DNA from: Patescibacteria group bacterium
GTDB taxonomy: Bacteria > Patescibacteriota > Doudnabacteria > UBA920
Length of the DNA stretch: 64,000 nucleotides
Direction: 5' to 3'
NCBI GenBank assembly: GCA_036726225.1
Contig: DAIMCS010000002.1
Location: 123,743-187,742 of the forward strand
The notes under the pieces were generated by a model. The model worked only from the letters and a program-made list of their open reading frames with translations, had not been told where the DNA came from and did no database searches. This document shows positions 14,946-49,795 of this stretch, piece after piece (position 1 is the stretch's first letter; each line of letters opens with the position of its first letter). A program made the translations under genes and the position numbers.

Positions 14946-16034
14946 ATGCCTAAAGTTACTGTTGTCCAGGTTATATATAATTCCAAAAAATATATTCAGC
15001 CCGTCTTTGAGGCCATTTTTAGGCAAACCTTTAAAGATTTTAACGTGGTGGCGGTAATTGCAGGAAATGCAGACGGCGGTAAAGAATTTTTGTCTGAAAA
15101 ATTTCCGCAAGTTGAAATTATAGATCCCGGCTACAATATTGGTTTTGCCAAAGGCCATAATTTGGTTTTTGAAAAATATCCATCTGATTTTTTTCAGCTC
15201 GTAAACCCCGATCTAATTATGGAACCCAATTATATTGAGGAAATTTTAAAAGCTTTTGAGGATCCAAAAGTTGGCGCGGCAACAGGCAAGTTGCTGCGTT
15301 ATGATTTTGAAAACAATCAGCCAACGAAAACCATCGATTCGACCGGAGTTTCCATAAGCAAATCCGGCCGCGCCAGGGACAGGGGACAGCATGAAATTGA
15401 TTATCATCAGTTTGACGATTTAACATCCGTTGATGCCGTTTCCGGCGCCGGCGCTATGTATAGGAGGGAAGCTCTTAAAGCAATAAAAACTCCAATATTG
15501 TCATCCCGACCGAGCCCGAGCGAAAGCGAGGGCGAGCGGAGGGATCTATTAAAAGATTCCTCGACTCGTCCCGATAAATCGGGACTCGCTCGGAATGACA
15601 GGGAATTTGAATTCTTCGACGAAGATTTTCATAGTTATTGGGAGGATGTCGATCTTAGTTGGCGCATGGCAAATGCAGGATGGAAAAATGTTTATGTTCC
15701 GTCCGCGGTTGGCTATCACGGCAGGGCATCAGGGTCATCTAAGGGCGGCTATAAAGACATTGGCGGATTTATACGGCATCATCGCAAGCTTAGCTCCTTT
15801 GTGCGCCAGTTGAATTACAAAAACCATATTTTTATGTACATAAAAAATTCTAAATGGTTTTACCCGCAGTTTTTTGTTCGTGAGTTTTTTATGCTAATCT
15901 ATATATTGGTTTTTGAAACCGGAACTTTAAAAGTTTTGCCGGGAATATTTGAATTATTGCCTAAGATGTGGCAGAAAAGAAAAAACATACAAAATAAAAT
16001 CCATTTCGAACGAAGTGAGAAATCTGTTTTGTGA
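14946..16034 (+). CDS. Family 2 glycosyltransferase carrying an in-frame 102-bp MITE-like insertion
   Basis: N-terminal GT-A fold (VTVVQVIYNSKKYIQPVFEAIFRQT...). The low-complexity insert SSRPSPSESEGERRDLLKDSSTRPDKSGLARNDR corresponds to a palindromic element. Confidence 0.8.
   Translation: MPKVTVVQVIYNSKKYIQPVFEAIFRQTFKDFNVVAVIAGNADGGKEFLSEKFPQVEIIDPGYNIGFAKGHNLVFEKYPSDFFQLVNPDLIMEPNYIEEILKAFEDPKVGAATGKLLRYDFENNQPTKTIDSTGVSISKSGRARDRGQHEIDYHQFDDLTSVDAVSGAGAMYRREALKAIKTPILSSRPSPSESEGERRDLLKDSSTRPDKSGLARNDREFEFFDEDFHSYWEDVDLSWRMANAGWKNVYVPSAVGYHGRASGSSKGGYKDIGGFIRHHRKLSSFVRQLNYKNHIFMYIKNSKWFYPQFFVREFFMLIYILVFETGTLKVLPGIFELLPKMWQKRKNIQNKIHFERSEKSVL
15499..15600. mobile_element. MITE-like element with terminal inverted repeats TGTCATCCCGAccGAGC / GCTCGctCGGAATGACA, inserted in frame (34 codons) in the GT2 gene
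   Basis: TIRs read directly; an internal hairpin gtcccgataaatcgggac. Related copies at 28493-28527 (5' half only) and 45540-45616 (TIR TGTCATTGCGA). Confidence 0.7.
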
Positions 16035-16050
16035 CAGATCTCTCGCTCCG

Positions 16051-16070
16051 CCTGCCTGCCGGCAGGCAGG
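16051..16070. repeat. 20-bp perfect palindrome CCTGCCTGCCGGCAGGCAGG (mini-element); other copies at 25816-25835 and 33451-33471
   Basis: Exact string recurs three times in the window. Confidence 0.9.
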
Positions 16071-16089
16071 CTCGAGATGGAAAAGAAAT

Positions 16090-16124
16090 GGCGTTATCCT
16101 GATCATACGGATCAGGATAACGCC
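16090..16124. terminator. Bidirectional terminator hairpin between convergent genes
   Basis: ggcgttatcctgatc-atac-ggatcaggataacgcc, a perfect 15-bp stem. Confidence 0.7.
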
Positions 16125-16141
16125 ATAAGAGCCCCGGCGGG

Positions 16142-18605: not shown

Positions 18606-18702
18606 TTGATCAAGATTTAAAAGAGTTAAATGATTGACATGATTAAGACGCAGGCTATTCTTGTCACTCTTGATCAATCTTGTCATTCATGTCAATTAAT
18701 TT
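18604..18702 (+). repeat. Intergenic repeat-family element (TTGATCAA / TTGACA-rich) directly abutting the alaS start codon
   Basis: Shares the motifs tgatcaagattt, gattgaca, cttgatcaatctt, catgtcaat with copies at 24748-24844, 25790-25907 and 31114-31196. Confidence 0.7.
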
Positions 18703-22406: not shown

Positions 22407-22482
22407 CGTATAAGGTATTAGGTATAATGTATAAAGTATAAGGCATCAGACCCCCTTATACTTTATACGGCATACCTTATAC
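22407..22482. repeat. ~76-bp imperfect palindromic element; its left arm (30 nt) recurs in frame inside pepN at 46371-46400
   Basis: cgtataaggtattaggtataatgtataaagtataagg ... ccttatactttatacggcataccttatac. Confidence 0.8.
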
Positions 22483-22489
22483 TTTCTAA

Positions 22490-24630: not shown

Positions 24631-24744
24631 ATGAAAGTTAGAGCTTCAGTAAAACCTATGTGCAAGAAATGCAAAATCGTCAGACGGTTCGGACGCGTTT
24701 ATATTATTTGTTCCAATCCTAAACATAAGCAGCGACAAGGATAA
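24631..24744 (+). CDS. rpmJ: 50S ribosomal protein L36 (37 aa; not in ORF track because it is below the 60-aa cut-off)
   Basis: Translation [37 protein letters not shown], a textbook L36 with zinc-ribbon Cys/His. Confidence 0.9.
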
Positions 24745-24747
24745 TTA

Positions 24748-24844
24748 ATTGACCAAGATTAAGTAAGATTTAAAAGATTGAACAAGAATGTAATGGCAAT
24801 CATGTCAATCTTGGTCAATCCTGATCAATCATTTAAATTCACCT
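24748..24844 (+). repeat. Intergenic repeat-family element abutting the rpsM start (copy B)
   Basis: Nearly identical to 25790-25907 except for the 20-bp palindrome insertion in that copy. The 3' 45 nt (aatcatgtcaatcttggtcaatcctgatcaatcatttaaattca) are identical in both. Confidence 0.85.
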
Positions 24845-25234
24845 ATGGCTAGAATTGCCGGGATAAATCTTCCCAACGAAAAAAGAATAGAAGCAGCCTT
24901 GCCCTACATCTACGGTGTAGGTTTAAGTTTGTCAAAAAAAATTCTGGCGGAAACCAGCGTTGATCCTAATAAAAGAACAAAAGATTTATCTGAACCCGAA
25001 CTTAACAGAATTAGGGAATATATAGAAAAAAGCTTTAAGGTAGAAGGGGAATTGCGACAGCAAATTTTGCTCAACATAAAACGCCTTAAAGAAATTGGGT
25101 CTTACCGAGGGGTCAGGCACATTAAAGGCCTGCCGGTCAGAGGACAAAGAACCAAAACCAATTCCCGTACCCGAAGAGGTAACGTTAGAAAAACCGCAGG
25201 CTCGGGTAGAAAGAACGCGGCGGAAAAAACCTAG
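24845..25234 (+). CDS. rpsM: 30S ribosomal protein S13
   Basis: [26 protein letters not shown]... Confidence 0.92.
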
Positions 25235-25315
25235 CGCTTCCGGCGCAGTAAAAAGTGACAAGTTGAAAGTAAAAAGTACTTTTAACTTTACACTTTCAAC
25301 TTTTAACTATATTTT

Positions 25316-25786
25316 ATGGCTGAAGAAAATATTACAACCGAAGAGGTAACCCAAGAAACTCCGGCAACTGCCGAAGCTGTTTCTCCTGTGGTTGAGGCTT
25401 CTGCAAAAATTAAGTCCAAGAAAAAGAAAAGCAAAGCCAAAATTACCAAAGGCAAAATTTACATTAACTCCACTTATAACAACACAATTGTCAGCCTTAC
25501 AGATATGGTTGGAAATGTACTTGTTTGGAGCTCGGCCGGTAAAATTGGTTTTAAAGGTTCAAAGAAATCCACTCCGTACGCCGGACAAAGAACCATGGAA
25601 GACGTGCTTGCCAAACTTCGTGAACGCGGACTTTCGGAGCTCGATGTTTTAATTAAAGGTATTGGCTCAGGCAGAGAATCTGCTATTAGGGCGCTTCAAG
25701 GCAGCGGATTAAATATTTTGTCTATTAAAGACCAGACCCCAATTCCTCACGGTGGCGTAAGGCCAAAGAAACCGAGACGAGTGTAA
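25316..25786 (+). CDS. rpsK: 30S ribosomal protein S11 with Lys/Ala-rich N-terminal extension
   Basis: IYINSTYNNTIVSLTDMVGNVLVWSSAGKIGFKGSKKSTPYAGQ. Confidence 0.92.
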   Translation: MAEENITTEEVTQETPATAEAVSPVVEASAKIKSKKKKSKAKITKGKIYINSTYNNTIVSLTDMVGNVLVWSSAGKIGFKGSKKSTPYAGQRTMEDVLAKLRERGLSELDVLIKGIGSGRESAIRALQGSGLNILSIKDQTPIPHGGVRPKKPRRV

Positions 25787-25789
25787 GTT

Positions 25790-25907
25790 AATTGAACAAG
25801 ATTAAGTAAGATTTACCTGCCTGCCGGCAGGCAGGAATGATTGAACAAGAGTGTACAGACAATCATGTCAATCTTGGTCAATCCTGATCAATCATTTAAA
25901 TTCATTT
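25790..25907 (+). repeat. Intergenic repeat-family element abutting the rpsD start (copy C), carrying a nested CCTGCCTGCCGGCAGGCAGG palindrome at 25816-25835
   Basis: Alignment by eye to copy B shows a clean 20-bp insertion. Confidence 0.85.
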
Positions 25908-26516
25908 ATGCGTTATACAGGTCCAAAAGTAAAAAAAGCAAGACGCCTGGGGATGGCTTTTACCCCCAAAGACGTAAAAATCCTCCAAAAGAGGAATTTT
26001 GCGCCTGGCCAGCACGGCCAAAACCGCAGCCGTCTTTCTGAATACGGAACCCAGCTCAAAGAAAAGCAGAAAGCTAAAGTGGCTTATGGAATAATGGAAC
26101 GCCAGTTCGAAATTTATTTTAACAAAGCTTTAAAGCAAACGGGAGTTACCGGTGACAACTTGCTCAAACTTTTGGAGCACCGGTTAGATAACATTGTTTT
26201 CCGTTTAGGTTTTGCTGAAACCCGCGCCCAGGCCAGACAGTTAGTTAACCACGGTTTTTTTGAAGTTAACGGCAAGCGCGTAGACATCCCTTCTTTTTCT
26301 GTTAAAGTCGGTGACATTGTTTCCGTCAGGCCGGTTAAACAGAAGAAAGCTTATATTGAAAAGATTAAAGAGAAGTTAAAGAATTTTAAAACTTTAGACT
26401 GGCTGCAATTAAACCCCGGTGAATTTAAAGGTAAAATTGTAAGCAGCCCGGAAGTCGAATCTTTGGGCTCCGAAATTAACACTCAGCTTATTGTTGAGCA
26501 TTATAGTAGGACATAA
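25908..26516 (+). CDS. rpsD: 30S ribosomal protein S4 (ORF track starts at an upstream in-frame M inside the repeat; true start MRYTGPK)
   Basis: MRYTGPKVKKARRLG...LDNIVFRLGFAETRAQARQLVNHG. Confidence 0.9.
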   Translation: MRYTGPKVKKARRLGMAFTPKDVKILQKRNFAPGQHGQNRSRLSEYGTQLKEKQKAKVAYGIMERQFEIYFNKALKQTGVTGDNLLKLLEHRLDNIVFRLGFAETRAQARQLVNHGFFEVNGKRVDIPSFSVKVGDIVSVRPVKQKKAYIEKIKEKLKNFKTLDWLQLNPGEFKGKIVSSPEVESLGSEINTQLIVEHYSRT

Positions 26517-28486: not shown

Positions 28487-28540
28487 AATAGTTGTCATCC
28501 CGAGCGACCGAAGGGAGTCGAGGGATCTCATCCAAGCATT

Positions 28541-29122
28541 ATGGTAACCAAAACACCCACAACCTCCGCCAAAGGCGGATCCGCCTCTGGCGGAAAATCA
28601 ACAGCCATTAAAGCGCCTCGTAAGCCCAGAGGTGCTGCTAAACCTGTCAAAGCAAAAGAAGTCGAGGAAGTTAAAACTCACGCGACTGCTGTTCATCCGC
28701 ATCCTGTAGAGCATAAACCGGCTCATGCTGAAAAAGGCAGGTATATTTTTGCAACCGGACGCAGAAAAACCGCTATTGCTAACGTCAGACTTTTTGAAGG
28801 CAAAGGCGAACAGGTTGTAAATAAACTTCCGCTTAAAAATTATTTTAACTATTCTTTTTATTTCGACGAAGTCATAAGGCCTCTGGAAGTTACAGGTCTT
28901 GAAGGCAAATATCACTTTACTGCACACATAAATGGCGGCGGCCCGCACGCCCAAGCAACCGCTTTGCGCCACGGTATAAGCATCGCCTTAGGCAGCATTT
29001 CTCAGGAAGTTAGAAAAGTTTTAAAAAAGAACGGCTTTTTAACCCGCGACGACAGAAAGAAAGAACGTAAGAAACCGGGTTTGAAGCGTGCAAGACGTTC
29101 CCCACAGTGGGCCAAGCGTTAA
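28541..29122 (+). CDS. rpsI: 30S ribosomal protein S9 with ~60-aa K/A/P-rich N-terminal extension
   Basis: RYIFATGRRKTAIANVRL...GGGPHAQATALRHGISIAL...KRARRSPQWAKR. Confidence 0.9.
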   Translation: MVTKTPTTSAKGGSASGGKSTAIKAPRKPRGAAKPVKAKEVEEVKTHATAVHPHPVEHKPAHAEKGRYIFATGRRKTAIANVRLFEGKGEQVVNKLPLKNYFNYSFYFDEVIRPLEVTGLEGKYHFTAHINGGGPHAQATALRHGISIALGSISQEVRKVLKKNGFLTRDDRKKERKKPGLKRARRSPQWAKR

Positions 29123-29658: not shown

Positions 29659-31113
29659 ATGAAAAAAACCGAGCTTATTTTTAACCTTATTTCAATTGGT
29701 TTTGACGCTGTTTTTCTGCTCCTGGCGGGGATCGCGTCTTTTTATTTGAGGCAGACGAATTTTGCCACCAGGATAGTCGGCCACCCTGTAAGTTACGATT
29801 TGCAATTTCAGCAATTTATTTCTTCGGCTTACTCCGTGCTTCCGGTTTTGCTTTTAATTTTCGCGGCTTTAGGGCTGTATAATTTAAAAGGTACCCGAAA
29901 GTTTTCTTCCGAAATTGGGAGAATTATGGTCGGCACTTCGCTTAGCTTGCTGCTCATTATTTTAATTTTCTTTTTTAACACCAATTTTTTTGAGGACATA
30001 TTCCCTTCCAGGTTTATAATTCTTGCTGCCTGGGCTTTGGGGACATTGTTTGTCATTTTTGGCAGAACGCTTTTAAAACAGCTGCAAGTGTTAACGTTTA
30101 AAAATAATATAGGTTTGCATAAGTTGGTAATTATAAACGGCGGTCCCGAGCTCGACGTTATTGAAAGTATTTTGAAAAAAAAGGAACATGGTTATGAAAT
30201 TACCGGCGAATTCGCTTTTTCTGAAAATATTTTTGAGCAGCTGGAAAAATTGTATGAAGAAGGCAGGGTGGATGAAATTTTACAGGGCAATTCCAACTTG
30301 AATGACTCTGCAAATTTAAAATTGGTGCAATTTGCGCGTGACAAAGGCTTAAAATTCAGCTTTGTGCCCAATTTGTTTGAGGTGCAAAGAAACATTATTG
30401 AAACTGACAATTTAGACGGTATTCCGCTTATCAGTTTAAAAAATACTCCATTGGACGGCTGGGGCAAAGTGGTAAAGAGAATTATGGATATTATTTTAAG
30501 CGCGGTATGTCTTATTGCTACGTCGCCAATATTTTTAATTGTTTCCGTTCTAATTAAGTTCGATTCGGCCGGTAAAGTTATTTATTCTGCCGTTCGCGGC
30601 GGGCGCGGCAAAAATTTTAAGTTTTACAAATTCAGGAGTATGTACAGCCATTTAAGCATTGGCGAGGACTACGGCGGCCGGCAGGCGGAACAACTTAGAG
30701 AGCAGCTTTGGGAAAAAAATGACCGTGGCGGCAAAGAAGGGCCGTTTTTAAAAATTAAAGACGACCCTCGTGTGACTAAAATTGGCCGTTTTTTGCGCAG
30801 GACCAAACTGGACGAAATCCCGCAGTTTTGGAACGTGTTTGTGGGGGATATGAGTATGGTGGGCCCCAGGGCGCACGTGTTAGATGAGGTCGACAGGTAC
30901 AGGAACCGCTACCCCAGAATGTTTAGCATTAAGCCCGGGACTTTTGGGCTTTCACAAATTGCGCAAATGAACTGGCCGGATTTGCCGTTTGAGGAAGAAA
31001 TTAGGCTGAACACTTTTTATATTGAGAACTGGTCGCTGTGGCTGGATGTAAAAATTTTAGCAAAAAGTTTTTGGCAGCTGTTTTTTGGAAAAAAGCCCAA
31101 GGCAAACTATTAG
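29659..31113 (+). CDS. Undecaprenyl-phosphate hexose-1-phosphate transferase (WbaP/WcaJ-like 'bacterial sugar transferase')
   Basis: N-terminal TM bundle plus C-terminal catalytic domain with IMDIILSAVCLIATSPIFLIV...KFRSM...KDDPRVTKIGRFLRRTKLDEIPQFWNVFVGDMSMVGPR. Confidence 0.85.
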   Translation: MKKTELIFNLISIGFDAVFLLLAGIASFYLRQTNFATRIVGHPVSYDLQFQQFISSAYSVLPVLLLIFAALGLYNLKGTRKFSSEIGRIMVGTSLSLLLIILIFFFNTNFFEDIFPSRFIILAAWALGTLFVIFGRTLLKQLQVLTFKNNIGLHKLVIINGGPELDVIESILKKKEHGYEITGEFAFSENIFEQLEKLYEEGRVDEILQGNSNLNDSANLKLVQFARDKGLKFSFVPNLFEVQRNIIETDNLDGIPLISLKNTPLDGWGKVVKRIMDIILSAVCLIATSPIFLIVSVLIKFDSAGKVIYSAVRGGRGKNFKFYKFRSMYSHLSIGEDYGGRQAEQLREQLWEKNDRGGKEGPFLKIKDDPRVTKIGRFLRRTKLDEIPQFWNVFVGDMSMVGPRAHVLDEVDRYRNRYPRMFSIKPGTFGLSQIAQMNWPDLPFEEEIRLNTFYIENWSLWLDVKILAKSFWQLFFGKKPKANY

Positions 31114-33418: not shown

Positions 33419-34603
33419 ATGAATAATTACACGCTCTCCAAAGGCCGGTCCCTGCCTGTCCGGCAGGCAGGCGCCTTCGGCAGAAAAATCGGCTTAGATT
33501 TAAGGCTATTTGGCACAGCTCACGGGGGCATTGGCAGGTACTGCGAACAGCTTTTCCCGCGGCTTTTAAAATTGGACAAAGCAAACCAATATTTTGCCTT
33601 TGTGAATTCCAAAATGCTTCACACAGGCGCTTTAAAAGCGCTGGAAAGTTTGAATAACTGCAAAATTGTGGAAACAAATGCCAGGCATTATTCTTTTGGC
33701 GAGCAGCTAAGCTTTTTAAGGCTGTTAAATAAATATAAATTGGATTTAGTCCATTTCCCGAATTTTAATATGCCGATTTTCTACAAACGCCCGTTTGTAG
33801 TTACTATCCATGACATGGTTCACCATAAAATTAGCGGTGCAAAAAAAAGTCATCTGCTGCATTTTTTAGCCTATAAAAAAGTAATTGAGACCGCGGGCAG
33901 GCAGTCAAAAAAAATTATCACAGTATCCCAGGCTTCCAAAAAAGACATAAGCAATTTTTTGCAAATTCCCAATGACAAAATCGAGGTAATTTACGAAGCC
34001 GCATCTTTAAGTCCCCAAATCCAGGCCGCAAAAGTTTTAGAAATAAAAAAGAGCTACCTTTTAAGCAGCCCGTATTTTTTGTTTGTCGGGGTATTGGAAC
34101 GCAAGAAAAATTTAATTAATTTAACCAGGGGGTTTGACTATTTTTTACAAAAATATAAATTGAAAATGGACCTGGTTTTGGTCGGAAAAAAAGATCCGCA
34201 CTACCCGGACATTAAGCATAAGGCTATGGACATTAAGCATAAAGACAACTTAGTTTTTGCAGACCAGGTGGATGATGAAGAATTGGCAGCTCTCTATAGC
34301 GGGGCTTATGCTTTTACCTCGGCTTCTTTACATGAAGGCTTTGGCTTGCCCGGGGTAGAGGCTTTGAGTTTTGGTTTGCCGCTGCTTGCTTCTAATATTG
34401 AAGTTTTTAATGAAATCTATGACAACGCTGCTATGTATTTTAACCCGCTTGACCCGGCCGATATAGCTGAAAAAATGAACCTGCTGGCAAGGGACAAACA
34501 ATTTTACGAACAAATGAGCAAGAAAAGTTTAGAAAGGGCTCAAAAGTTTGGCTGGGACGAGGCAGCTGCGGCCACTTTAGAAGTATACAAACAAATTTTA
34601 TGA
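33419..34603 (+). CDS. Family 4 glycosyltransferase with an in-frame palindrome insertion near the N-terminus
   Basis: EGFGLPGVEALSFGLPLLASNIEVFNEIY. The N-terminus aligns to the upstream paralog (GRKIaIDLR) except for the extra LPVRQAGA encoded by cctgcctgtccggcaggcagg. Confidence 0.88.
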   Translation: MNNYTLSKGRSLPVRQAGAFGRKIGLDLRLFGTAHGGIGRYCEQLFPRLLKLDKANQYFAFVNSKMLHTGALKALESLNNCKIVETNARHYSFGEQLSFLRLLNKYKLDLVHFPNFNMPIFYKRPFVVTIHDMVHHKISGAKKSHLLHFLAYKKVIETAGRQSKKIITVSQASKKDISNFLQIPNDKIEVIYEAASLSPQIQAAKVLEIKKSYLLSSPYFLFVGVLERKKNLINLTRGFDYFLQKYKLKMDLVLVGKKDPHYPDIKHKAMDIKHKDNLVFADQVDDEELAALYSGAYAFTSASLHEGFGLPGVEALSFGLPLLASNIEVFNEIYDNAAMYFNPLDPADIAEKMNLLARDKQFYEQMSKKSLERAQKFGWDEAAAATLEVYKQIL

Positions 34604-38136: not shown

Positions 38137-39252
38137 ATGAAAATCCAGGAAAACGTTTTGCTAGCTCCATACACCACTTTTAAAATCGGCGGGCCGGCGA
38201 AGTTTTTTTGCATTGTAAACGACCAGTTCGATGCGCTTTCGGCCTATGACTTTGCGGACAAAAATCGGCTTAAAACCTTAGTTTTGGGCGGCGGAAGCAA
38301 TGTGTTAATTAGTGACAAAGGTTTTGACGGGCTTGTTTTAAAGGTGGAGAACAAGGGCATTGAAATTTTGTTTCAAAATGAAAATTTTGTAACCTTAAAA
38401 GTTGCTTCCGGTGAAAATTGGGATGAAGTTGTAAAATTTGCGGTAAAAAATAACTGGTGGGGGATTGAAAATCTTTCCCACATTCCCGGCTCCAGCGGGG
38501 CCATTGCCGTACAAAATGTTGGCGCTTACGGACAGGAAGCTAAAAATGTAATTGAATCGGTTGTGGTTTTTAACAAAGCCACTCACGAAATACAAAATTT
38601 GCAAACTCAAGATTGCCACTTTGCTTACCGCTCCAGTATTTTTAACGCCAGCCGCAAAGGTAATTTTATTATTTTTTATATTGTTTTTAAATTGTCCAAG
38701 ATGGCAAAACCTATTTTGTCTTACCGTGATCTGAAAAAGTACTTTCAGCTTTCAGAAACCCTCTCTGCCCCGGCTGTGCCGGGGCATCTCCCCCAAAAGG
38801 GGGAGAATAATAATGTATTATCGCTTGAAAAAATTCGCGAGGCGATAATCTATATACGTGACAAAAAATTCCCCTTTCCCACAGAGGCAAAAAAAGGGAA
38901 TGCCGGGTCATTTTTTAAGAATCCTGTTTTAAGTAAAGAACAATATAACGTGCTTAAAGAAACTCTTGATGTAAATTTTGGCACTCAAAAAGTTGCGGAG
39001 CTGGAAACAAAGCAATTTGTGGAAGAGGAAAAAATTAAAGTTCCGGCCGCTTTTTTAATAGACCTTTGCGGCTTAAAAGATCTGCAAGTCGGAGGCGCAG
39101 CAATTAACGCAAACCAGCCTTTGGTAATTGTAAATGAAAGCGGCACTGCGAGCGCACAAGACGTGCTTAGTTTGGCAAACAGGGTAAAAGCAGAGGTTAA
39201 AAATAAAACCGGTATTGAACTAATGTTTGAACCGGAGTTGATTGGTTTTTAA
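38137..39252 (+). CDS. murB: UDP-N-acetylenolpyruvoylglucosamine reductase carrying an in-frame twin-hairpin insertion
   Basis: FAD-binding N-terminus TTFKIGGPAKFFCIV...LVLGGGSNVLISDKGFDG. Insert ...APAVPGHLPQKGENNNV... at 38767-38815. Confidence 0.88.
   Translation: MKIQENVLLAPYTTFKIGGPAKFFCIVNDQFDALSAYDFADKNRLKTLVLGGGSNVLISDKGFDGLVLKVENKGIEILFQNENFVTLKVASGENWDEVVKFAVKNNWWGIENLSHIPGSSGAIAVQNVGAYGQEAKNVIESVVVFNKATHEIQNLQTQDCHFAYRSSIFNASRKGNFIIFYIVFKLSKMAKPILSYRDLKKYFQLSETLSAPAVPGHLPQKGENNNVLSLEKIREAIIYIRDKKFPFPTEAKKGNAGSFFKNPVLSKEQYNVLKETLDVNFGTQKVAELETKQFVEEEKIKVPAAFLIDLCGLKDLQVGGAAINANQPLVIVNESGTASAQDVLSLANRVKAEVKNKTGIELMFEPELIGF
38767..38815. repeat. Twin-hairpin mini-element (gccccggctgtgccggggc + tctcccccaaaagggggaga + ATAATAATG) in frame inside murB
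   Basis: Same architecture at 49744-49795 (upstream of secD) and single G5/C5 hairpins at 46849-46869 (in pepN) and 52264-52291 (secF terminator). Confidence 0.75.
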
Positions 39253-40259: not shown

Positions 40260-40409
40260 AAGTGCCTAGCAGGAAGCGAATTTACATTCGCTTCCTGCGT
40301 CACAATACTAATTACTTTTTTATGAGAACAATAAACTCAAAATTATATATTTCCATTTGGTGGGTTTTGCAATTCCCGCAAAGCCGTCTTTAAGCGTGTT
40401 TAGTTACAA

Positions 40410-40446
40410 AAACATCCCGACGGCCGTCGGGATGTTTTTGTTTTGG
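40410..40446. terminator. Terminator hairpin, followed by a 15-bp palindrome GATTGTCAAACAATC (40455-40469, -35/operator-like)
   Basis: aaaacatcccgacggccgtcgggatgtttttgtttt. Confidence 0.65.
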
Positions 40447-40506
40447 CTTTTGATTGTCAAACAATCGAGAGCCAGCACAAAAGCTGGAGAAGGCAGGAGG
40501 AATATT

Positions 40507-40878
40507 ATGTCAGAGGAGATCGTCCGTTGGTGTTTTGTTCAGTTGGTATATGAGCGTTTTGTAAGACAGTTAATGGATGCCGAGGAAGAAGAAAGATTTA
40601 CAATCCATCTTTCCAGGTGTGCTTTATGCCGAAATGCCGTGGAGCAGACAGATGAGGAGCTGGCGCAAGCCAAGCTTGAAGCCGGAGAAAAAAAAGTACG
40701 CTTGCTCATTCGGCAAATTGGCAGAACGAAACACAACATGAGGAAAGTTCGCGCAATCAACGGTAAAAGGGTCTTAAAAAACAACGAAGCTAGAGAGCGA
40801 CAGATTAAAATAATGGAAGGACAACTGCTTGAAGCGGAGGCAAATATTTTTGCTTTGAGATGTAAGTATTTGCCATGA
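40507..40878 (+). CDS. Hypothetical coiled-coil protein (123 aa; ORF track start 40357 lies inside a terminator, so the AGGAGG-served ATG at 40507 is used)
   Basis: ggcAGGAGGaatattATG; terminator aagacagg...ccctgtcttatttttt after the stop. Confidence 0.55.
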   Translation: MSEEIVRWCFVQLVYERFVRQLMDAEEEERFTIHLSRCALCRNAVEQTDEELAQAKLEAGEKKVRLLIRQIGRTKHNMRKVRAINGKRVLKNNEARERQIKIMEGQLLEAEANIFALRCKYLP

Positions 40879-42474: not shown

Positions 42475-45198
42475 ATGTCTTTTTTAAGCAATTTATTTAG
42501 CGGACAAAAGAACCCTTTGGACAGGTTTTCCAAAGAGCTTTTGGAAGTTAACAGTTACAGGGAAGAAGTGGAAAAGCTCACACAGGAGCAAATGAGAAAA
42601 GAAGTGACAAGTTACAAGTCACAAGTAACAAGTTTAGAAACTGACAAAGAGATTTTTTTAAAGCTTCAGCAAATTGCTCCCAGGGTTTTTGCCCTAATCC
42701 GCGAAGCCGCAAAAAGGTCCATTGGCCAGTTCCATTACGACGTCCAGCTCGCCGGCGGTTTTGTTTTGTCCAGCGGGAAAATTGCTGAAATGAAAACCGG
42801 AGAAGGAAAAACTCTAACTGCGACTTTGCCGCTCGGGCTTTTTGCGCTTGCAGGCAAAGGCGCGCATTTGGTCACAGTAAACGACTATTTAGCCAGGTGG
42901 CAAGCCTCTCTTATGGGCCCGGTTTTCCATTATCTTGGACTTTCTACTTCATCCATTCAGCACGAAGCCTCGTTTTTGTACGACTCAAGCTACCAGCCAG
43001 AACAGGAAGAAATTACCAAGCTCGAAGGCGAGACCCAGGGTTTGGTAATGGATGTAAAACATATGCGGCCGGTTAAACGCAAAGAAGCCTACGCCGCGGA
43101 TATAACTTACGGCACCAACAACGAATATGGCTTTGACTATTTGCGCGACAATATGGCGCAAAACGTTTCGCAAATAGTTCAGCGCGAATTGTTTTTTGCA
43201 ATTGTCGACGAAGTTGACTCTATTTTAATAGATGAAGCGCGTACCCCTCTTATCATTAGCATGCCGGACGCAGAGCCAACCAGCAAGTATTACGATTTTG
43301 CCAAATTAGTTGAGCGGTTAGACGAAAGCACAGACTATATAGTTGACGAAAAGCACAAATCAGCATCGCTGACCGATGCGGGCATTAATAAAATTGAAAG
43401 CATTTTAAAAGTGCCGAACATTTACGACACTTCCAAAGGCGTTACTACCATCCACCATATTGAACAGGCTTTAAGGGCCAGGACTTTGTTTAAAAAAGAC
43501 AGGGACTATGTGGTGCGTGAAGGCGAAATTATTATTGTAGACGAATTTACCGGGCGTTTAATGTTTGGCCGCAGGTATTCAGAAGGACTGCACCAGGCAA
43601 TTGAGGCAAAAGAAAACGTAAAAATCCAGCAGGAAAGCAAAACCCTTGCCACCATAACCTTCCAAAATTTATTTAGGCTTTACAAAAAACTTTCGGGTAT
43701 GACCGGAACGGCCAAAACCGAGGAAGAGGAGTTCTTTAAAATTTATCAGCTTACAGTTGAGCAAATCCCAACCCATAGGCCAATGGTAAGGGCAGACGGC
43801 GCGGATATGATTTATAAAACTGAGGAAGCCAAGTTTAAAGCTATTGCAAAAGAAGTAAAAGAACGCCACAAAAAAGGCCAGCCGGTTTTAATTGGTACGG
43901 TAAGCATTGCCAAAAACGAAATGCTGGCAGAAGTTTTAAAGAGCGAAGGGCTGACTTTTGAAATTTTAAACGCTAAAAACCACGAACGTGAGGCGCATAT
44001 TATTTCCCAGGCCGGCCGCTTGGGGCAAATTACTTTGGCCACTAACATTGCCGGTCGCGGTGTGGACATTTTGCTCGGCGGCAACCCCATAGACCAGCAG
44101 GAGGCCAAAGCTGTGCGAGATGCGGGTGGTCTGCACATTTTGGGCACGGAGCGCCACGAATCGCGCCGTATAGACAACCAGCTTCGCGGGCGCGCCGGCC
44201 GTCAGGGTGACCCGGGGTCTTCGCAGTTTTTTGTTTCTATGGAAGATGACCTTATGCGCCTTTTTGGCGGCGAGCGGATGAAGTCCTTAATGACCACTTT
44301 GGGCCTGCCGGACGACCAGCCAATTGAAGCAAAATTGGTTTCGCGGTCTATTGAGTCTGCGCAAAAGAAAATTGAAGGCTTAAACTTTGACACCAGAAAA
44401 CACGTGCTTGAATTTGACGACGTATTAAACCACCAGCGCAACGTAATTTACAAAAGGCGCCGCGCGTTTTTGGCAGACACAGAAGAAAGCAAACAGGGGG
44501 ATTTGAAAAAAGAAATTTTGGAAATGGTGGAAAAGGAAATTGGGGAGCTGGTGACAACTAATTTAAATGCGTTAGACGAACTTGGCAATAAAAAAGAGGA
44601 CTGGGATAATTTGTTTAAAACTGCAAACAGCATAATTCCTGTTGATCAGAATCTTATTGCTAAAATAAAAGAAGAAGCAAAAAATGCGGCAGACAGGGAA
44701 TTTGCAGTTGCCGATGTGCTATATAAAGCAGCGGCTGATTTTTGGGAAAAGAAAGAGCAGGAAATGGGCAGGGAGGTTTTTGAAGGCGCGCAACGGTTTG
44801 TGGCTTTGCAGTCTTTAGACAACCTTTGGATGGAGCATTTGGACACTATGGACCATTTGCGCGACTCGGTAAGGCTCCGCGGCTATGGCCAAAGGGATCC
44901 GCTTGTTGAGTACAAAAAAGAAGGGCATTTAATGTTCCAGCGTTTGACCGCAGAAATAAACAAGCAAATTGTCTTTACTATTTTCCACATAAGTGTCCAA
45001 GCCAAGCCACAGCAACAGGTCCAGCCAATGAATTTGAATTTATCGAGTCAATCAGCGAATCAGTCAATCAGCGAATCAGCTGATAAAAGTGTGGGCAGAA
45101 ACGAGCCTTGCCCCTGCGGCAGCGGGAAGAAATGGAAAAAATGCGGGATGATAAATTCCCAAGAACATCAAACGAATATATCTAAAACTAATCACTAA
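42475..45198 (+). CDS. secA: Preprotein translocase ATPase SecA
   Basis: DVQLAGGFVL, MKTGEGKTLTATLP (Walker A), DEVDSILIDEARTPLIIS; C-terminal zinc motif CPCGSGKKWKKCG. Confidence 0.95.
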   Translation: MSFLSNLFSGQKNPLDRFSKELLEVNSYREEVEKLTQEQMRKEVTSYKSQVTSLETDKEIFLKLQQIAPRVFALIREAAKRSIGQFHYDVQLAGGFVLSSGKIAEMKTGEGKTLTATLPLGLFALAGKGAHLVTVNDYLARWQASLMGPVFHYLGLSTSSIQHEASFLYDSSYQPEQEEITKLEGETQGLVMDVKHMRPVKRKEAYAADITYGTNNEYGFDYLRDNMAQNVSQIVQRELFFAIVDEVDSILIDEARTPLIISMPDAEPTSKYYDFAKLVERLDESTDYIVDEKHKSASLTDAGINKIESILKVPNIYDTSKGVTTIHHIEQALRARTLFKKDRDYVVREGEIIIVDEFTGRLMFGRRYSEGLHQAIEAKENVKIQQESKTLATITFQNLFRLYKKLSGMTGTAKTEEEEFFKIYQLTVEQIPTHRPMVRADGADMIYKTEEAKFKAIAKEVKERHKKGQPVLIGTVSIAKNEMLAEVLKSEGLTFEILNAKNHEREAHIISQAGRLGQITLATNIAGRGVDILLGGNPIDQQEAKAVRDAGGLHILGTERHESRRIDNQLRGRAGRQGDPGSSQFFVSMEDDLMRLFGGERMKSLMTTLGLPDDQPIEAKLVSRSIESAQKKIEGLNFDTRKHVLEFDDVLNHQRNVIYKRRRAFLADTEESKQGDLKKEILEMVEKEIGELVTTNLNALDELGNKKEDWDNLFKTANSIIPVDQNLIAKIKEEAKNAADREFAVADVLYKAAADFWEKKEQEMGREVFEGAQRFVALQSLDNLWMEHLDTMDHLRDSVRLRGYGQRDPLVEYKKEGHLMFQRLTAEINKQIVFTIFHISVQAKPQQQVQPMNLNLSSQSANQSISESADKSVGRNEPCPCGSGKKWKKCGMINSQEHQTNISKTNH

Positions 45199-45539: not shown

Positions 45540-45616
45540 TGTCATTGCGATCCGCCAAAGGCGGAGAAGCAATCCAAAATAAGATTGCTTCGTCGCTATC
45601 GCTCCTCGCAATGACA
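45540..45616. mobile_element. 77-bp MITE-like element with perfect 11-bp TIRs TGTCATTGCGA / TCGCAATGACA and an internal hairpin
   Basis: Read directly; the TIR is related to TGTCATCCCGA of the 15499 element. Confidence 0.75.
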
Positions 45617-45623
45617 GAAATGT

Positions 45624-46198: not shown

Positions 46199-48790
46199 AT
46201 GAAAAATGTTAGATTGCCAGCTTACATAAAACCCGAACGTTACCAAATTTTAATGAAACCTAATTTGGAGGGTTTTACTTTTGATGGTGAGGAAACAATA
46301 TATTTGAGGCTGGATAAATCAACACGCGAAATAGTTTTGCATGCAAAGGAATTAAAAATAGCTGAGGCATCGTATAAGGTATTAGGTATAACGTATAAAG
46401 GGAAGGTTTCTTATGATGTTAAAGCTGAAACGGCAGCATTTGCTTTCCCAAAATCCCTACCTAGAGGGAAAGGGGAATTAAAACTTTCTTTCAAAGGAAT
46501 TTTAAACGACCAAATGCGCGGGTTTTACCGGAGCCGCTACACCCACGAGGGCAAAGAAAAGCATATGGCCACAACGCAGTTTGAAGCCACAGATGCCCGC
46601 AGAGCTTTTCCTTGTTTTGATGAGCCGGCACAAAAAGCGATTTTTGACGTAACTTTAATGGTGCCAAAGGGACTGACGGCCATCTCTAACACCATTGAAA
46701 CATCAATAGCCGAGCATGAAAGCGGTTACCAGGTTGTAAAATTTGCGCCTACGCCCAAAATGTCCACCTATCTTTTGGCATTTATAGTGGGGGATTTTGA
46801 ATTTATAGAAGGCTGGGCCAAACCATCCAAAATTTCACCCCCACCTAACCTCCCCCCTCAAGGGGGAGGAAAAAATAAAGGAACCTTAGTACGTGTATTC
46901 GTAACTCCGGGGAAAAAGCACCAGGCAAAATTTGCGTTGGGCACGGCCATTAAAATGCTTGAGTTTTATAATAAATATTTTGACATCCCATATCCTTTGC
47001 CGGTTTTGGATTTAATTGCAATTCCAGATTTTTCCCACGGCGCTATGGAAAATTGGGGCGCGGTAACTTACCGCGAATCTGCCCTCTTGGTTGACACTAA
47101 ATTATCATCCGCTGCTAACAAGCAATGGGTGGCTTTGGTTATTGCCCACGAGCTGGCCCACCAATGGTTTGGTAATTTGGTAACCATGGAATGGTGGACC
47201 CATTTGTGGCTTAACGAAGGGTTTGCATCTTATATAGAATATTTGGCAGTTGACCATCTTTTTCCTAAATGGGACATTTGGACGCAGTTTGCCGCGCACG
47301 ATTTAAACCCGGCCTTAGAACTCGATTCGCTAAAGCACACCCATCCTATAGAGGTGGAAGTCCGCCACCCCGACGAGATTGGTGAAATTTTTGACGAAAT
47401 TAGCTACAGCAAAGGCTCAAGTGTTATTCGTATGCTGGCCGGTTACTTGGGTAAAACAGATTTTCGTGACGGCCTGCGTTATTATTTAAAAAAACATTCC
47501 TACAAAAATGCTTCCACTATAGATTTGTGGGAAGCTTTTGAAAAAGTGTCGAAAAAACCCGTCAGCGCGCTTATGCAAAATTGGACAGGCAAAGGCGGAT
47601 ACCCGGTAGTAAAAATTATTCAAAAACCGAAAAGTTTGCAATTTACCCAAAGCAGGTTTTTTTCTTCGCCCGTTTCCAAAAAGCAGGTAGGGGACAAAAC
47701 CGTTTGGCAGGTACCGGTGTCAGTTACGGGTGACGGGGTAGGGGTGACGGGTTATTTGATGGAAAAAAAATCTATGAGCATACCCAAACCAAAAGGGGAG
47801 TGGGTAAAAGTTAATTTTGGCGAAACAGGATTTTTTAGGGTTAATTACCCCTCTCAAATGCTTGCTGAGTTTAAACCGGCAATTAAATCTAAAAAATTGC
47901 CCTCAATTGACCGGTTGGGAATTATTAGAGACGCGTTTGCGCTTTCTGAAGCCGGAGATTTGCCGGCAGCCCGGGCGCTGGCTTTAACGAATGCTTATAT
48001 AACAGAAAACGATTATACAGTCTGGTTGCAGCTGGCTTCGTCTTTGGCGGACATAAAAATGCTCATTTTTGGCCAAAAGTATTATTTTTTATTTGAAAAT
48101 TACGCGCGCACTGTTTTTGAAAATGTAGGTAAAAAAGTCGGCTGGAAGGTAAAAGCAGGGGAAGGCCATACCGAGGCTTTGCTTAGAAGCTTGGTTTTGC
48201 ATCAGCTTGCTTCTTATAACCACGCGCCAACAATAAAAAAAGGTTTGCAAATTTATAAATCCAAGAATATTTCGGCAGATATAAAGAGCGTAGTTTACCA
48301 GATTGCGGCCCAGCAGGGAGGCGCAAAAGAACATCAAAAATTTATTCAAAGTTACAAAACAGAAAGCCTAAGTGAGGAGAAAAACCGAATTGGCCGCGCT
48401 TTGGGACAATTTACAAACCCGGGTCTTTTGAAAAAAAGTTTGCAGTTTGCCTTGTCCAAAGAAGTTAGGATCCAGGATACAGCCGGAATTTTTATGTCAG
48501 TCTGGAATAACCCGCAAGGAAGGCAAATAGCCTGGCAGTTTACCAAAAAGAGTTGGGGAGATTTGCTTAAGAGGTATCCATCGTCGGGGCATATGTTGTC
48601 TCGGTTCATAAAACCCGCAGGCAATTTTGTTTCTGCAAAAGATGCAAAAGACGTAGGCGCGTTTTTTAAAAAGCATAAAGCGCCGGGCGCCAAAAGGGCG
48701 GTTGAGCAGGTTTTAGAAAAAATTTACAGCCAGGACGCCTGGTTTTTGCGCGACGGCAAGCATATAGAAAATTGGTTGAAAAGTTTATGA
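46199..48790 (+). CDS. pepN: Aminopeptidase N (M1 family metallopeptidase) carrying two in-frame mini-element insertions
   Basis: GAMENWG exopeptidase motif; HELAHQWFGNLVTMEWWTHLWLNEGFA (HEXXH-18-E). Insertions at 46371-46400 and 46849-46869. Confidence 0.9.
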   Translation: MKNVRLPAYIKPERYQILMKPNLEGFTFDGEETIYLRLDKSTREIVLHAKELKIAEASYKVLGITYKGKVSYDVKAETAAFAFPKSLPRGKGELKLSFKGILNDQMRGFYRSRYTHEGKEKHMATTQFEATDARRAFPCFDEPAQKAIFDVTLMVPKGLTAISNTIETSIAEHESGYQVVKFAPTPKMSTYLLAFIVGDFEFIEGWAKPSKISPPPNLPPQGGGKNKGTLVRVFVTPGKKHQAKFALGTAIKMLEFYNKYFDIPYPLPVLDLIAIPDFSHGAMENWGAVTYRESALLVDTKLSSAANKQWVALVIAHELAHQWFGNLVTMEWWTHLWLNEGFASYIEYLAVDHLFPKWDIWTQFAAHDLNPALELDSLKHTHPIEVEVRHPDEIGEIFDEISYSKGSSVIRMLAGYLGKTDFRDGLRYYLKKHSYKNASTIDLWEAFEKVSKKPVSALMQNWTGKGGYPVVKIIQKPKSLQFTQSRFFSSPVSKKQVGDKTVWQVPVSVTGDGVGVTGYLMEKKSMSIPKPKGEWVKVNFGETGFFRVNYPSQMLAEFKPAIKSKKLPSIDRLGIIRDAFALSEAGDLPAARALALTNAYITENDYTVWLQLASSLADIKMLIFGQKYYFLFENYARTVFENVGKKVGWKVKAGEGHTEALLRSLVLHQLASYNHAPTIKKGLQIYKSKNISADIKSVVYQIAAQQGGAKEHQKFIQSYKTESLSEEKNRIGRALGQFTNPGLLKKSLQFALSKEVRIQDTAGIFMSVWNNPQGRQIAWQFTKKSWGDLLKRYPSSGHMLSRFIKPAGNFVSAKDAKDVGAFFKKHKAPGAKRAVEQVLEKIYSQDAWFLRDGKHIENWLKSL

Positions 48791-49401
48791 AGTTAGGAAT
48801 ATTCATTTTTATTTTGGCAATAGTCATCCCCGGAAAGCTTTTGGCGCAGGGGAGCCTTGAACCGTTAAGCATTGCACAACAAAAAACCATTGATTCCGAC
48901 AGCGACGGATTAAGCGATTATTACGAAATTTATGTTTACCATACTTCCATTAGCAACCCTGATACTGACCATGACGGTTTTTTAGACGGAGGCGAAGTAC
49001 AATTCGCTTTTGACCCTAACAAAAACGGGAATGACAAATTACAAAAAGAAATTGTAGTCACACTCGCTGACCAGAGTTTAAGTTATAAGCTGGGGGATTA
49101 CATTGTTGGTACTTTTAAAATTTCCAGCGGCAAAAAATATTTTTCCACACCATTGGGAGAGTTTTCGGTTTTGAAAAAAAGGCCGATTGTGGATTATGTA
49201 GGTCTTGGGTATAGCTATCCTAAAACCAAATGGAACTTAATGTTTAGGCCGGGCAGAGTGGGGAACTTTTATATTCACGGGGCATATTGGCACAACAATT
49301 TTGGCACGCCCATGAGCCATGGGTGTGTAAACGTTTCTTACGCTAATATGGAAGCGCTCTATAATTGGGCGGAAGTTGGCACAAAAGTCGTCATAAAATA
49401 A
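48772..49401 (+). CDS. L,D-transpeptidase (YkuD fold) with N-terminal signal peptide and Asp-rich Ca-binding-like segment
   Basis: Catalytic motif SHGCVNVS near the C-terminus; DSDSDGLSDYYE...DTDHDGFLDGGE. Confidence 0.8.
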   Translation: MVEKFMKLGIFIFILAIVIPGKLLAQGSLEPLSIAQQKTIDSDSDGLSDYYEIYVYHTSISNPDTDHDGFLDGGEVQFAFDPNKNGNDKLQKEIVVTLADQSLSYKLGDYIVGTFKISSGKKYFSTPLGEFSVLKKRPIVDYVGLGYSYPKTKWNLMFRPGRVGNFYIHGAYWHNNFGTPMSHGCVNVSYANMEALYNWAEVGTKVVIK

Positions 49402-49459
49402 AATATGGCAATTAGCAGCTTGGTCTGGTAAAATACTAGTATCTTGATGGGAGGGCGGT

Positions 49460-49615
49460 ATGCTAACAGATCCTGTTTGCGGTATGGGAGTCAGTGATGA
49501 AACAATGTTTAATTCGGTCCACGAAGGCTCGACGTACTTTTTTTGCTCTCAAGACTGTATGGATGAGTTTGAGCAAAACCCGGAGGAATATGAAACTGAA
49601 TCTGGCCACAAATGA
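49460..49615 (+). CDS. Unannotated 51-aa YHS/TRASH-type metal-binding domain protein (below ORF-track cut-off)
   Basis: Translation MLTDPVCGMGVSDETMFNSVHEGSTYFFCSQDCMDEFEQNPEEYETESGHK shows the DPVCGM...Y.FCS..C...F YHS signature. GGGAGGGCGG SD upstream and a terminator (49627-49667) downstream. Confidence 0.7.
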   Translation: MLTDPVCGMGVSDETMFNSVHEGSTYFFCSQDCMDEFEQNPEEYETESGHK

Positions 49616-49743
49616 GGCAGCCGTAAGCGGGAAGCAGCGTTTAGCTGCTTCCCGCACTTTCTTTTTTAAGCATTGCCAAAACCGCTGGTTTTGCTATAAT
49701 ATGCCAAGTATAAATCTGAGCTGTAAACATCGACCCCCTCATC

Positions 49744-49795
49744 TGTCCTGCCAAAGGCAGGACATCTTCTCCCGCTAGGGGAGAAGATAATAATG
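49744..49795 (+). repeat. Twin-hairpin mini-element (tgtcctgccaaaggcaggaca + cttctcccgctaggggagaag + ATAATAATG); its terminal ATG is the annotated secD start
   Basis: Same architecture as 38767-38815 in murB. Confidence 0.75.

Follow-up and report, generated by a model that had tools for sequence, protein, structure and literature searches.

The window analyzed here is a 64,000-nt stretch of contig DAIMCS010000002.1 from a Patescibacteria genome (GenBank assembly GCA_036726225.1), and it is populated by several families of short palindromic, hairpin-forming repeats that lie both between genes and, in frame, within conserved genes. The + strand holds nearly all of the genes, at a GC content of ~42%. 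Pfam matches define a glycan and cell-wall cluster (GT2 and GT4 glycosyltransferases, Wzy, a flippase, murC, murB, murD and a murG-like gene), a ribosomal protein and rpoA operon, the secretion genes secA, secD and secF, and an M1 aminopeptidase gene (pepN). The nearest genomes in GTDB are metagenome-assembled genomes of Candidatus Doudnabacteria, with PepN identities of at most 73%, and the window is a segment from this group of uncultured, ultra-small bacteria. In an Rfam scan of the window, RNase P RNA is the sole match at the gathering threshold; known RNA families were considered for the hairpins as well, and the matches at the E-value threshold are only miRNA-like and meaningless.

The GC-rich hairpins fall into families that we label A, B, C and G, present in 2, 3, 4 and 3 copies, respectively, in the 64 kb, which is far above chance. 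Families B and G, together with the unit (D) of a further, AT-rich class of arrays with a period of 7 nt (heptads), recur as exact 15-20-mers where at most 0.1 are expected, and the families nest, with B found within C and G within C. Compared with shuffled sequence, all elements but two fold with z-scores of -3.6 to -7.7; folding is weaker for the isolated pepN and GT4b hairpin segments (z = -1.9 and -2.2). All of the elements described below lie on the + strand, except for the B palindrome at 25816-25835 and two intergenic heptad hairpins, to which no strand is assigned.

A first-pass annotation of the window had described short palindromic elements, likened to transposable elements of the miniature inverted-repeat type (MITEs), in murB, pepN, a GT2 gene and a GT4 gene. 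Every string that it named occurs at the position given and far above chance, including those at 16051, 22407, 25816, 45540 and 49744. Its core, namely that palindromic repeats occur in intergenic regions and also in frame in conserved genes, is right and several of its details are wrong, and we regard it as partly supported.

Hairpin families and their insertions in conserved genes

In murB (38137-39252), a family A twin hairpin of 60 nt, equal to 20 codons, occupies positions 38759-38818 (z = -7.7). It is laid out as TGCCCCGGC-TGT-GCCGGGGCA, then TCTCCCCC-AAAA-GGGGGAGA and then ATAATAATGTAT, with the hairpins at 38766-38806, and the peptide predicted for the insert region is SAPAVPGHLPQK. 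The segment is absent from E. coli MurB and from syntenic orthologs of the Candidate Phyla Radiation (CPR), in which the loop reads YRDLKxKF-(5-6 aa)-SLxEIR, compared with 25 aa in the window. The alignment bears out the in-frame insertion that had been called here as lineage-specific: the window loop is ~20 aa longer than in nine syntenic orthologs, and the twin hairpin with its tail accounts exactly for the extra 60 nt. The nearest relative (L007) carries a different hairpin in its murB loop.

The second family A twin hairpin (63 nt, 49736-49798, hairpins at 49744-49788) lies in the 5' untranslated region (UTR) of secD, between the conserved promoter elements (TTGCCAAAA...TTTGCTATAAT) and the ancestral start ATGCATCC (49802), and 17 orthologs have no such element ahead of secD. 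Compared with the murB copy, the stems of the secD copy show compensatory changes. Both twin hairpins, whose tail is ATAATAATGWAT, run into ATAATAATG, which is found nowhere else in the window, and the composite motif GGGGAGA-N0-3-ATAATAATG has two matches in the window where 0.00 are expected. A promoter-like pair, TTGCCAAAA...(T)TTGCTATAAT(AT) at 49673-49702, is kept in the secD upstream region of nearly all 17 CPR orthologs examined (L007-L062). The tail of the secD hairpin also creates a new in-frame ATG (49793) with GGAG upstream.

Similarly, pepN (46199-48790) carries an in-frame insert at 46826-46876 that encodes SKISPPPNLPPQGGGKN and falls at an 18-aa gap in human puromycin-sensitive aminopeptidase (PSA). 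Its hairpin, CCTCCCCC-CTCAA-GGGGGAGG, spans 46849-46869, and the peptide predicted for the insert region is ISPPPNLPPQGGGK. Human PSA and ~65 of 80 CPR orthologs read IEGKTKDGVLVRVF at this place, to which the window adds 17-18 aa (51-54 nt) between conserved flanks, in agreement with the first-pass description of a C6/G5 hairpin insertion. When 16 window genes were scanned without bias against CPR orthologs, only two window-specific insertions of at least 4 aa emerged, and both are the GC hairpins of murB and pepN.

Family C, unlike the twin hairpins, is built of 35-nt units that follow the scheme TGTC-AT-xyz-GA...z'y'x'-AT-C and resemble repetitive extragenic palindromes (REPs). The four copies in the window comprise one singlet at 28493 and inverted dimers at 15499-15600, 16001-16080 and 45540-45616, with terminal inverted repeats TGTCATYSCGA...TCGSRATGACA; the TGTC tag stands at 15499, 28493 and 45540, as well as at opposite-strand ends. 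The arm triplets covary, with 37 complementary where 2.6 are expected and five variants represented (TGC, CCT, TCT, TCC and CCC).

The first of the dimers (15499-15600, 102 nt; z = -4.25, -26.8 kcal/mol) lies within the GT2 gene (14946-16034) and consists of two TGTC-tagged REP-like units in inverted arrangement, TGTCATCCCGA...TCGGAATGACA. It amounts to 34 codons, with the peptide LSSRPSPSESEGERRDLLKDSSTRPDKSGLARND, and as had been proposed these form an insert: the 34 aa stand at a loop of 0-2 aa in minimal orthologs (e.g., P0003, P0021 and P0027), and among the 120 best-scoring homologs the loop that ALEAVKY and EYFDEDFHSYWEDVD enclose varies in length from 0-2 aa to ~80 aa. In an AlphaFold2 model of the window GT2 (mean predicted local distance difference test score 90.7), 10-residue blocks over residues 181-220 average 78, 53, 51 and 59, and the only stretch predicted with low confidence (block means 51-59) falls at the insert, which would be consistent with tolerance.

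A second, degenerate family C dimer (16001-16080; z = -5.64) spans the GT2 stop codon (TGA, 16032-16034), which sits in its loop. The right arm holds a nested B palindrome (16051-16070), and the left arm codes for the last GT2 residues, HFERSEKSVL. The C-terminal tails of GT2 orthologs vary and NIxxGR(D/E)-type endings are common; by back-translation only, these endings may be read as the same family C arm. At least one independent assembly (contig L212, Logan SRR6448456) breaks 45 nt past the GT2 stop, inside this element, and such repeats therefore fragment short-read assemblies.

The remaining family C copies are intergenic. The singlet, TGTC-AT-CCC-GAGCGACCGAAGGGAGTCGA-GGG-AT-CTC, lies in the rplM-rpsI spacer (28493-28529), and the third dimer (TGTCATTGCGA...TCGCAATGACA, 77 nt, 45540-45616; z = -7.59) lies in the spacer before a Ham1-like gene, its right arm being the canonical GATTGCTTCGTCGCTnnCGCTCCTCGCAATGAC.

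The 20-nt palindrome of family B, CCTGCCTGCCGGCAGGCAGG, occurs exactly at 16051 and at 25816, where 0.01 are expected. At 25816-25835 the palindrome has been inserted cleanly into an AT-rich leader of ~105 nt, in the second of its two copies: the filled site (25770-25925) can be compared with the empty site (24730-24860, GATTTA|AAAGATTG), the leaders upstream of rpsD and rpsM being 91-93% identical, and alignment of the leader copies reveals no target-site duplication. The leader is itself a repeat (24746-24847 and 25787-25910) that abuts the rpsM and rpsD start codons, is composed of 9-10-nt units that are CAAGATTGA-like, and has inverted partial copies at 31113-31197, after a sugar-transferase gene, and at 18612-18696, before alaS; it could be a shared leader or operator, or another dispersed element. 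At the rpsD (S4) start, the mechanical open reading frame (ORF) begins with GTG at 25851, and the leader alignment together with the JGI gene call (L208 20963, which corresponds to window 25908) indicates ATG 25908 (MRYT...) as the real start.

A B-like palindrome of 21 nt, CCTGCCTG-T-CCGGCAGGCAGG (33451-33471), encodes LPVRQAG near the start of the GT4 gene at 33419-34603. This 21-mer had been taken for a 7-codon insert absent from the adjacent paralog. We find that it lies inside a lineage-specific N-terminal extension of 22 aa. This is missing from ~105 of 120 orthologs, which start with M(K)KIGLDLR; in the window the ancestral Met is replaced (GRKIGLDLR), and GGAGG precedes the ATG at 33419. 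As an empty site for the 21-mer the adjacent GT4 paralog was considered and is uninformative, its N-terminus not being alignable. The GT4 palindrome is probably translated, yet it would not be a clean 7-codon insert, and its status depends on the choice of start codon.

Two tandem 15-nt mini-hairpins, TCCGCCAAAGGCGGA and TCCGCCTCTGGCGGA, make up family G and occupy, in frame, part of the N-terminal tail of ribosomal protein S9 (28565-28594, rpsI 28541-29122), an insert missed by the first-pass annotation. These 30 nt encode SAKGGSASGG, and the ten residues are missing in most of the 70 orthologs displayed (120 aligned), while a minority carry variants of the insert and one has a similar insert elsewhere in the protein. 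A further copy of the first 15-mer sits at 45551-45565, nested within a family C element (4 matches in the window, 0.09 expected). Neither family B nor family G contains a stop codon in any of the six frames.

That all insert lengths are multiples of three had previously been read as a sign that the insertions are tolerated under purifying selection. The inserts are indeed in frame and tolerated, but lengths divisible by three follow from the ORFs being intact; the informative facts about frame are that B measures 20 nt between genes and 21 nt within a gene, and that 80 pepN orthologs are intact despite 41 inserts.

Recurrence of hairpin inserts in other genomes

We compared PepN, whose homologs in 80 species genomes, most of them labelled CPR, are 53-73% identical. 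Counting the window's own sequence (81 in all), PepN has 41 lineage-specific inserts of at least 6 aa at ~12 sites. Nearly half of these (49%) contain a perfect stem of at least 7 bp, compared with 6.5% of matched controls, and their mean folding energy per nt is -0.30 compared with -0.155, with the GC content of most at ~0.4-0.8. The site filled in the window holds unrelated hairpin inserts in at least 12 other lineages, and across the 80 CPR species the PepN, MurB and GT2 loops hold differing hairpin inserts, all in frame. Family C units within coding sequence are found in other CPR PepN genes (L052 1653-1705 and 2215-2296; L076 11527-11602; L041 ~12005), one of them encoding ...ASATKQS...IASLPSVARNDR, and in-frame insertion of family C is therefore not peculiar to this genome. 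In another species (L009) the pepN insert is a GTAG-initiated hairpin.

Along its full length the window aminopeptidase matches human PSA (E ~1e-232), its matches to bacterial PepN structures being far poorer; an ancient transfer between CPR and eukaryotes may lie behind this likeness.

In two further accounts, the inserts would not be inserted peptide at all. One is that they are assembly chimeras, mis-called ORFs or variable loops misread as insertions. Contigs of other assemblies that end in the GT2 3' palindrome (L212) would fit this, as would the GT4 case, which hinges on the start codon. The exact PepN protein, however, is found on 19 contigs and the exact GT2 protein, insert included, on 21, from three independent assembly sources (JGI, ENA and Logan); six PepN loci that were fetched are 99.9-100% identical in DNA to the window. 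Because these identical proteins, inserts included, come from independent assemblies, an assembly artefact is excluded for PepN and GT2, the two genes looked up. The inserts also coincide with statistically strong hairpins that recur elsewhere, and we find this account barely credible.

The other is that the inserts are short intervening sequences cut out at the RNA level, leaving the proteins unaffected. The rRNA genes of CPR bacteria carry insertions, and the strong hairpins with defined ends would suit excision. Still, the 41 pepN inserts and those of the window are in frame and free of stops, which would be needless if they were excised, and no Rfam intron or ribozyme matches them. All 80 pepN ortholog genes are single intact ORFs despite their inserts, which argues that the inserts are translated and not spliced out. 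Excision is thus very improbable.

Family C reaches beyond this genome. Hairpins between genes on Methylosinus and Methylocystis plasmids share 94-97% identity with the right arm of the 45540 copy, and when metagenomes were scanned with this arm, at least 120 stretches matched it exactly, on contigs spanning 32-69% GC. The consensus of the metagenome copies is (C)GTCATTGCGAGCGAAGCGAAGCAATCC-[~20-nt variable spacer]-GGATTGCTTCGTCGCTnnCGCTCCTCGCAATGAC(G), mostly 80-87 nt long, with a class of 114-121 nt that has an extra GC hairpin nested in the left arm. The partner arm lies within ~90 nt in 62 of 82 sampled copies, and most of the high-GC copies inspected carry a CGTC tag. The exact forms of families A and B, by comparison, are confined to loci of this organism.

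A further account is that the hairpins are selected cis-acting RNA or DNA signals, acting in mRNA stability, pausing of ribosome or polymerase, or factor binding, with the coding copies kept for that role. Their intergenic positions are suggestive (between promoter and start in the secD 5' UTR, in gaps of the ribosomal protein operon, at the GT2 stop codon), their stems covary, genomes from 32% to 69% GC have kept the family C arms, and an effect of REPs on mRNA stability is already known (PMC3733652). However, the same loop in other lineages holds an unrelated sequence or nothing, so that no positional function is conserved, and most orthologs dispense with the insert. In addition, no T-run follows the murB and pepN hairpins by eye (ATAATAATG and AAAAAATAAAGG, respectively, follow; no terminator scan was run). 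We therefore consider selection for such a signal unlikely.

Heptad arrays in spacers and genes

Separate from the GC-rich hairpins are the AT-rich period-7 arrays, a layer of heptanucleotide simple-sequence repeats whose turnover, by slippage or conversion, would leave protein length as it is. A hairpin of five GTATAAG units, a loop and the inverted array fills a whole intergenic spacer (22408-22488), and another, (AGTNAMA)n with its inverted array, fills the rpsM-rpsK spacer (25247-25308). In pepN, the array GTATAAG GTATTAG GTATAAC GTATAAA (46372-46402) encodes SYKVLGITYKG; in secA, (NACAAGT)x4.7 (42600-42634) encodes EVTSYKSQVTS in a protein of the same length there as all orthologs; and in murD, (GTTACAA)x5 (61780-61816) lies where the protein is shorter than in solved MurD structures. 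The secA and murD arrays had been described as hexamer runs, (NCAAGT)n, but their period is seven, and (ACAAGTN)3 has 8 matches in the window compared with 0.04 expected. The accompanying remark that they are not demonstrable insertions agrees with our finding that the pepN (site 1), secA and murD arrays bring no net gain in protein length. The 30-nt arm in pepN, by contrast, had been counted as an insertion, and the loop length is unchanged. A GC-rich heptad array, (ACGGGTG)x3.9, occurs elsewhere in pepN (47726-47752, aa ~510) and encodes VTGDGVGVTG; the region around aa ~513 is an insertion hotspot in other CPR PepN orthologs.

The enrichment is specific to this period. Tandem Repeats Finder (at least 3.5 copies) reports 10 period-7 arrays in the window compared with 0.07 in shuffles, and 117 in the 80 CPR loci compared with at most 10 for any other period; in the CPR loci ~35% of the arrays lie within long ORFs, and 11 are adjacent inverted pairs. 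At PepN site 1, ten Doudnabacteria-like orthologs each have their own array unit at constant loop length. Exact copies of the 20-mer GTATAAGGTATTAGGTATAA stand at 22408 and at 46372 in pepN (0 expected), the arms matching over 20/20 positions and 29/31 overall, and the pepN array has its unit variants in the same order as the 22408 intergenic arm. A DNA-uptake signal was considered for the AT-rich motifs and rejected: there is no dispersed over-represented 7-9-mer, and the arrays are local.

Period-7 repeats are known in prokaryotes, where polymerase slippage has been held responsible for their excess (Mrazek et al., 2007, as cited in PMC4692102 and PMC4679880). As far as these two sources describe them, the known heptanucleotides (TAACTGA and GGGAATC) similarly come in 2-6 units, are over-represented and mostly intergenic, and form some inverted pairs. 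Here, about one third lie in long housekeeping ORFs, the units differ by array, and a single coding loop of PepN keeps an array with species-specific units in ten species. While the layer is of a known kind, its frequency in housekeeping genes and the order shared by pepN and 22408 stay unexplained.

These arrays invite a more general account, in which polymerase slippage or template switching would build palindromes as well as tandem units in situ. It applies mainly to the heptads: period 7 is the dominant tandem repeat in the window and the 80 CPR loci, slippage is the cause given in the literature for the heptanucleotide excess, the pepN, secA and murD arrays leave protein length unchanged, and the units at pepN site 1 differ in ten related species. 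Slippage cannot, however, produce exact 15-20-nt GC-rich palindromes at unlinked loci; it leaves unexplained the clean 20-nt insertion and the family C arm common to Alphaproteobacteria, and the variant-unit order that the pepN array shares with the 22408 arm points to copying. As an account of the sequences as a whole, it is quite improbable.

Dispersed hairpins and their probable counterparts

We favor as the likely explanation that the elements are dispersed, REP-like hairpins, including inverted pairs, that selection has confined to frame-preserving, stop-free positions in permissive loops and termini, and that they are the CPR counterpart of the Rickettsia palindromic elements (RPEs) and of intragenic REPs. 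They occur as multi-copy families with filled and empty sites, they are lineage-specific and preserve the reading frame, and the same hotspots recur in other lineages. There are at least four GC-rich families, namely the 60-63-nt twin hairpin A, the 20-nt palindrome B, the 35-nt TGTC units of C as singlets and 77-102-nt dimers, and the 15-nt mini-hairpin G, whose usual home would be short operon spacers such as 5' UTRs, intercistronic gaps and gene 3' ends. New copies would enter without duplicating the target, in many cases within or next to other hairpins, and a coding copy would persist only if the frame is kept, stops are lacking and the site is a permissive surface loop or terminus, which would explain both the presence of one in each of murB, pepN, GT2 and rpsI and the unrelated hairpin inserts at these loops in other CPR lineages. 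The elements themselves may be selfish or neutral, and could spread through recognition of single-stranded hairpins by a trans-acting HUH/Y1 enzyme, similar to IS200 transposases or to REP-associated tyrosine transposases (RAYTs), or by another host enzyme. A trans-acting Y1/HUH mobilizing activity is plausible.

The closest parallel is with the RPEs (Ogata et al., 2000 Science; 2002 Genome Res, as summarised in PMC10969869), which in that summary likewise comprise several dispersed palindrome families, intergenic as well as in frame in unrelated housekeeping genes, that add a fold-compatible extra peptide. In-frame insertion absent from orthologs, a feature of RPEs, is found here in murB, pepN, GT2 and rpsI. 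The RPEs differ in host, Rickettsia not being CPR, and in size (~100-150 bp compared with 15-102 nt here), and several of our families are bare GC palindromes without a conserved peptide. RPE-4 and RPE-6 of Rickettsia conorii carry a CGTC tag and belong to the CGTC-REP superfamily (PMC3733652); by the description given there, this tag, against the TGTC variant here, is their sole link to family C.

REPs tagged with CGTC or GTAG, including intragenic ones, have been surveyed by Di Nocera et al. (2013; PMC3733652). The CGTC REPs lie mostly downstream of or between co-directional ORFs, and also include copies in genes and N-termini, donate stop codons, insert into palindromes and have no known dedicated transposase (PMC3733652). 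With these REPs family C shares the unpaired CGTC/TGTC tag, a stem initiated by AT, a CCA-like tail, inverted dimers and abundance in Alphaproteobacteria. The consensus shows the CCA-like tail, as does the left unit at 45540; the other window units end differently (CT). Unlike in the published CGTC families, the interior of family C is 12-25 nt and often itself hairpinned. CPR bacteria are not among the phyla that the survey covered, and families A, B and G are without the tag.

In the parts of the REPIN-RAYT literature drawn on here (Bertels and Rainey; bioRxiv 10.1101/2022.05.22.493013), REPINs are described as two inverted REPs with a variable spacer that form a ~80-nt hairpin and are non-autonomous and multi-copy, much like the dimers of family C. 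They differ in having a GTAG motif, which is absent from the ends of all window elements, and in their association with RAYTs, none of which we found in the window or beside 80 metagenome copies; furthermore, the family C arm is common to genomes of 32-69% GC.

The likeness to MITEs drawn by the first-pass annotation holds in part. Bacterial MITEs (Correia, ERIC, QMITE1/2; PMC10969869, PMC5896051) similarly have terminal inverted repeats, are small, and make occasional in-frame fusions and overlaps with gene ends. Against the likeness, the clean insertion has no target-site duplication and none is evident at the family C copies or at 60 metagenome copies with flanks; no related insertion sequence or transposase was found, most elements are below MITE size, and the anatomy is that of a REP or REP dimer. 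The coding palindromes of Nematomorpha mitochondria (PMC6649704) are also inverted repeats in frame in conserved protein genes, but these are organellar, reach 284 bp, code through both arms and have no known relation to REPs. In the literature searched, the phenomenon is already established in Rickettsia and for tagged REPs, and the CPR case is without a report: none contains the family B or C sequences or ties palindromic inserts or heptamer repeats to CPR.

Several observations weigh against the explanation by dispersed REP-like elements. No transposase or RAYT is present among the window ORFs scanned with Pfam, and no recurrent neighbor or transposase accompanies the 80 metagenome family C copies, where clustering of 538 nearby ORFs gave housekeeping families only; across 1.4 Mb of CPR loci, a search with an IS200 TnpA query turned up only one IS200-like gene. 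Plain alignment score was tried as proof that the two family A copies are related and does not exceed shuffled controls. The CGTC REPs have an 8-9-bp stem and a 4-5-nt loop, in contrast to the ~5-bp outer stem of family C (ATTGC/GCAAT, ATCCC/GGGAT). Empty sites were sought at strain level and no presence/absence polymorphism could be scored; since the six fetched loci are near-identical and the nearest relatives share ~70% protein identity, no recent polymorphism is visible. The recurrence of hotspots could result from targeting rather than from selection, and it is from frame preservation only that we infer translation of the insert codons as extra, probably disordered, loop residues.

The IS200-like gene lies in a Parcubacteria locus ~2 kb from pepN (L044 14817-15245) and encodes an IS200/IS605-type Y1 transposase of 142 aa with an HIH motif and GYCVSTVG. 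It is a lead only: candidate hairpin-specific transposases exist in CPR, and none is linked to the elements.

Beyond this locus, we tentatively raise the possibility that colonization by hairpin repeats is a general, undescribed force in CPR protein evolution, with REP-like hairpins and heptads seeding loops at a few hotspots (MurB, S9, PepN, SecA and glycosyltransferases) and a CGTC/TGTC dimer of ~80 nt, nearly unchanged in sequence, common to CPR, Alphaproteobacteria and many soil bacteria. If true, the sharing of the dimer would imply horizontal spread of a non-autonomous element or a universal host enzyme, with no dedicated transposase, and essential cell-wall, ribosome and secretion genes would carry translated repeat DNA. 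The hotspots over 80 species are a natural experiment on which loops tolerate insertion and how disordered segments arise, and a REP arm kept across 32-69% GC makes the spread of tagged REPs without a dedicated transposase testable. In practice, such inserts make for an inflated set of CPR-specific protein features, for assemblies that break at palindromes and for misled start-codon calls.

Other repeats in the window include a 300-nt unit, tandemly duplicated with 99-100% identity (903-1475), in the gene for a 1092-aa DUF11-repeat protein (234-3512). A perfect 24-nt palindrome, TATCAGCGTACTAGTACGCTGATA, lies at 31710-31733 within the GT4 gene at 31197-32270, and ATCAGCG-type units occur again at 45046-45080, in the C-terminal region of secA with a period of 16, and in the intergenic region at 53592-53621. 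A perfect palindrome of 36 nt, ACAAAAACATCCCGACGGCCGTCGGGATGTTTTTGT, at 40406-40441, with an A-run on one side and a T-run on the other, has the look of a bidirectional terminator; it is situated at the 5' end of a doubtful ORF (40357-40878), and its core, CATCCCGAC, is similar to the family C stem.

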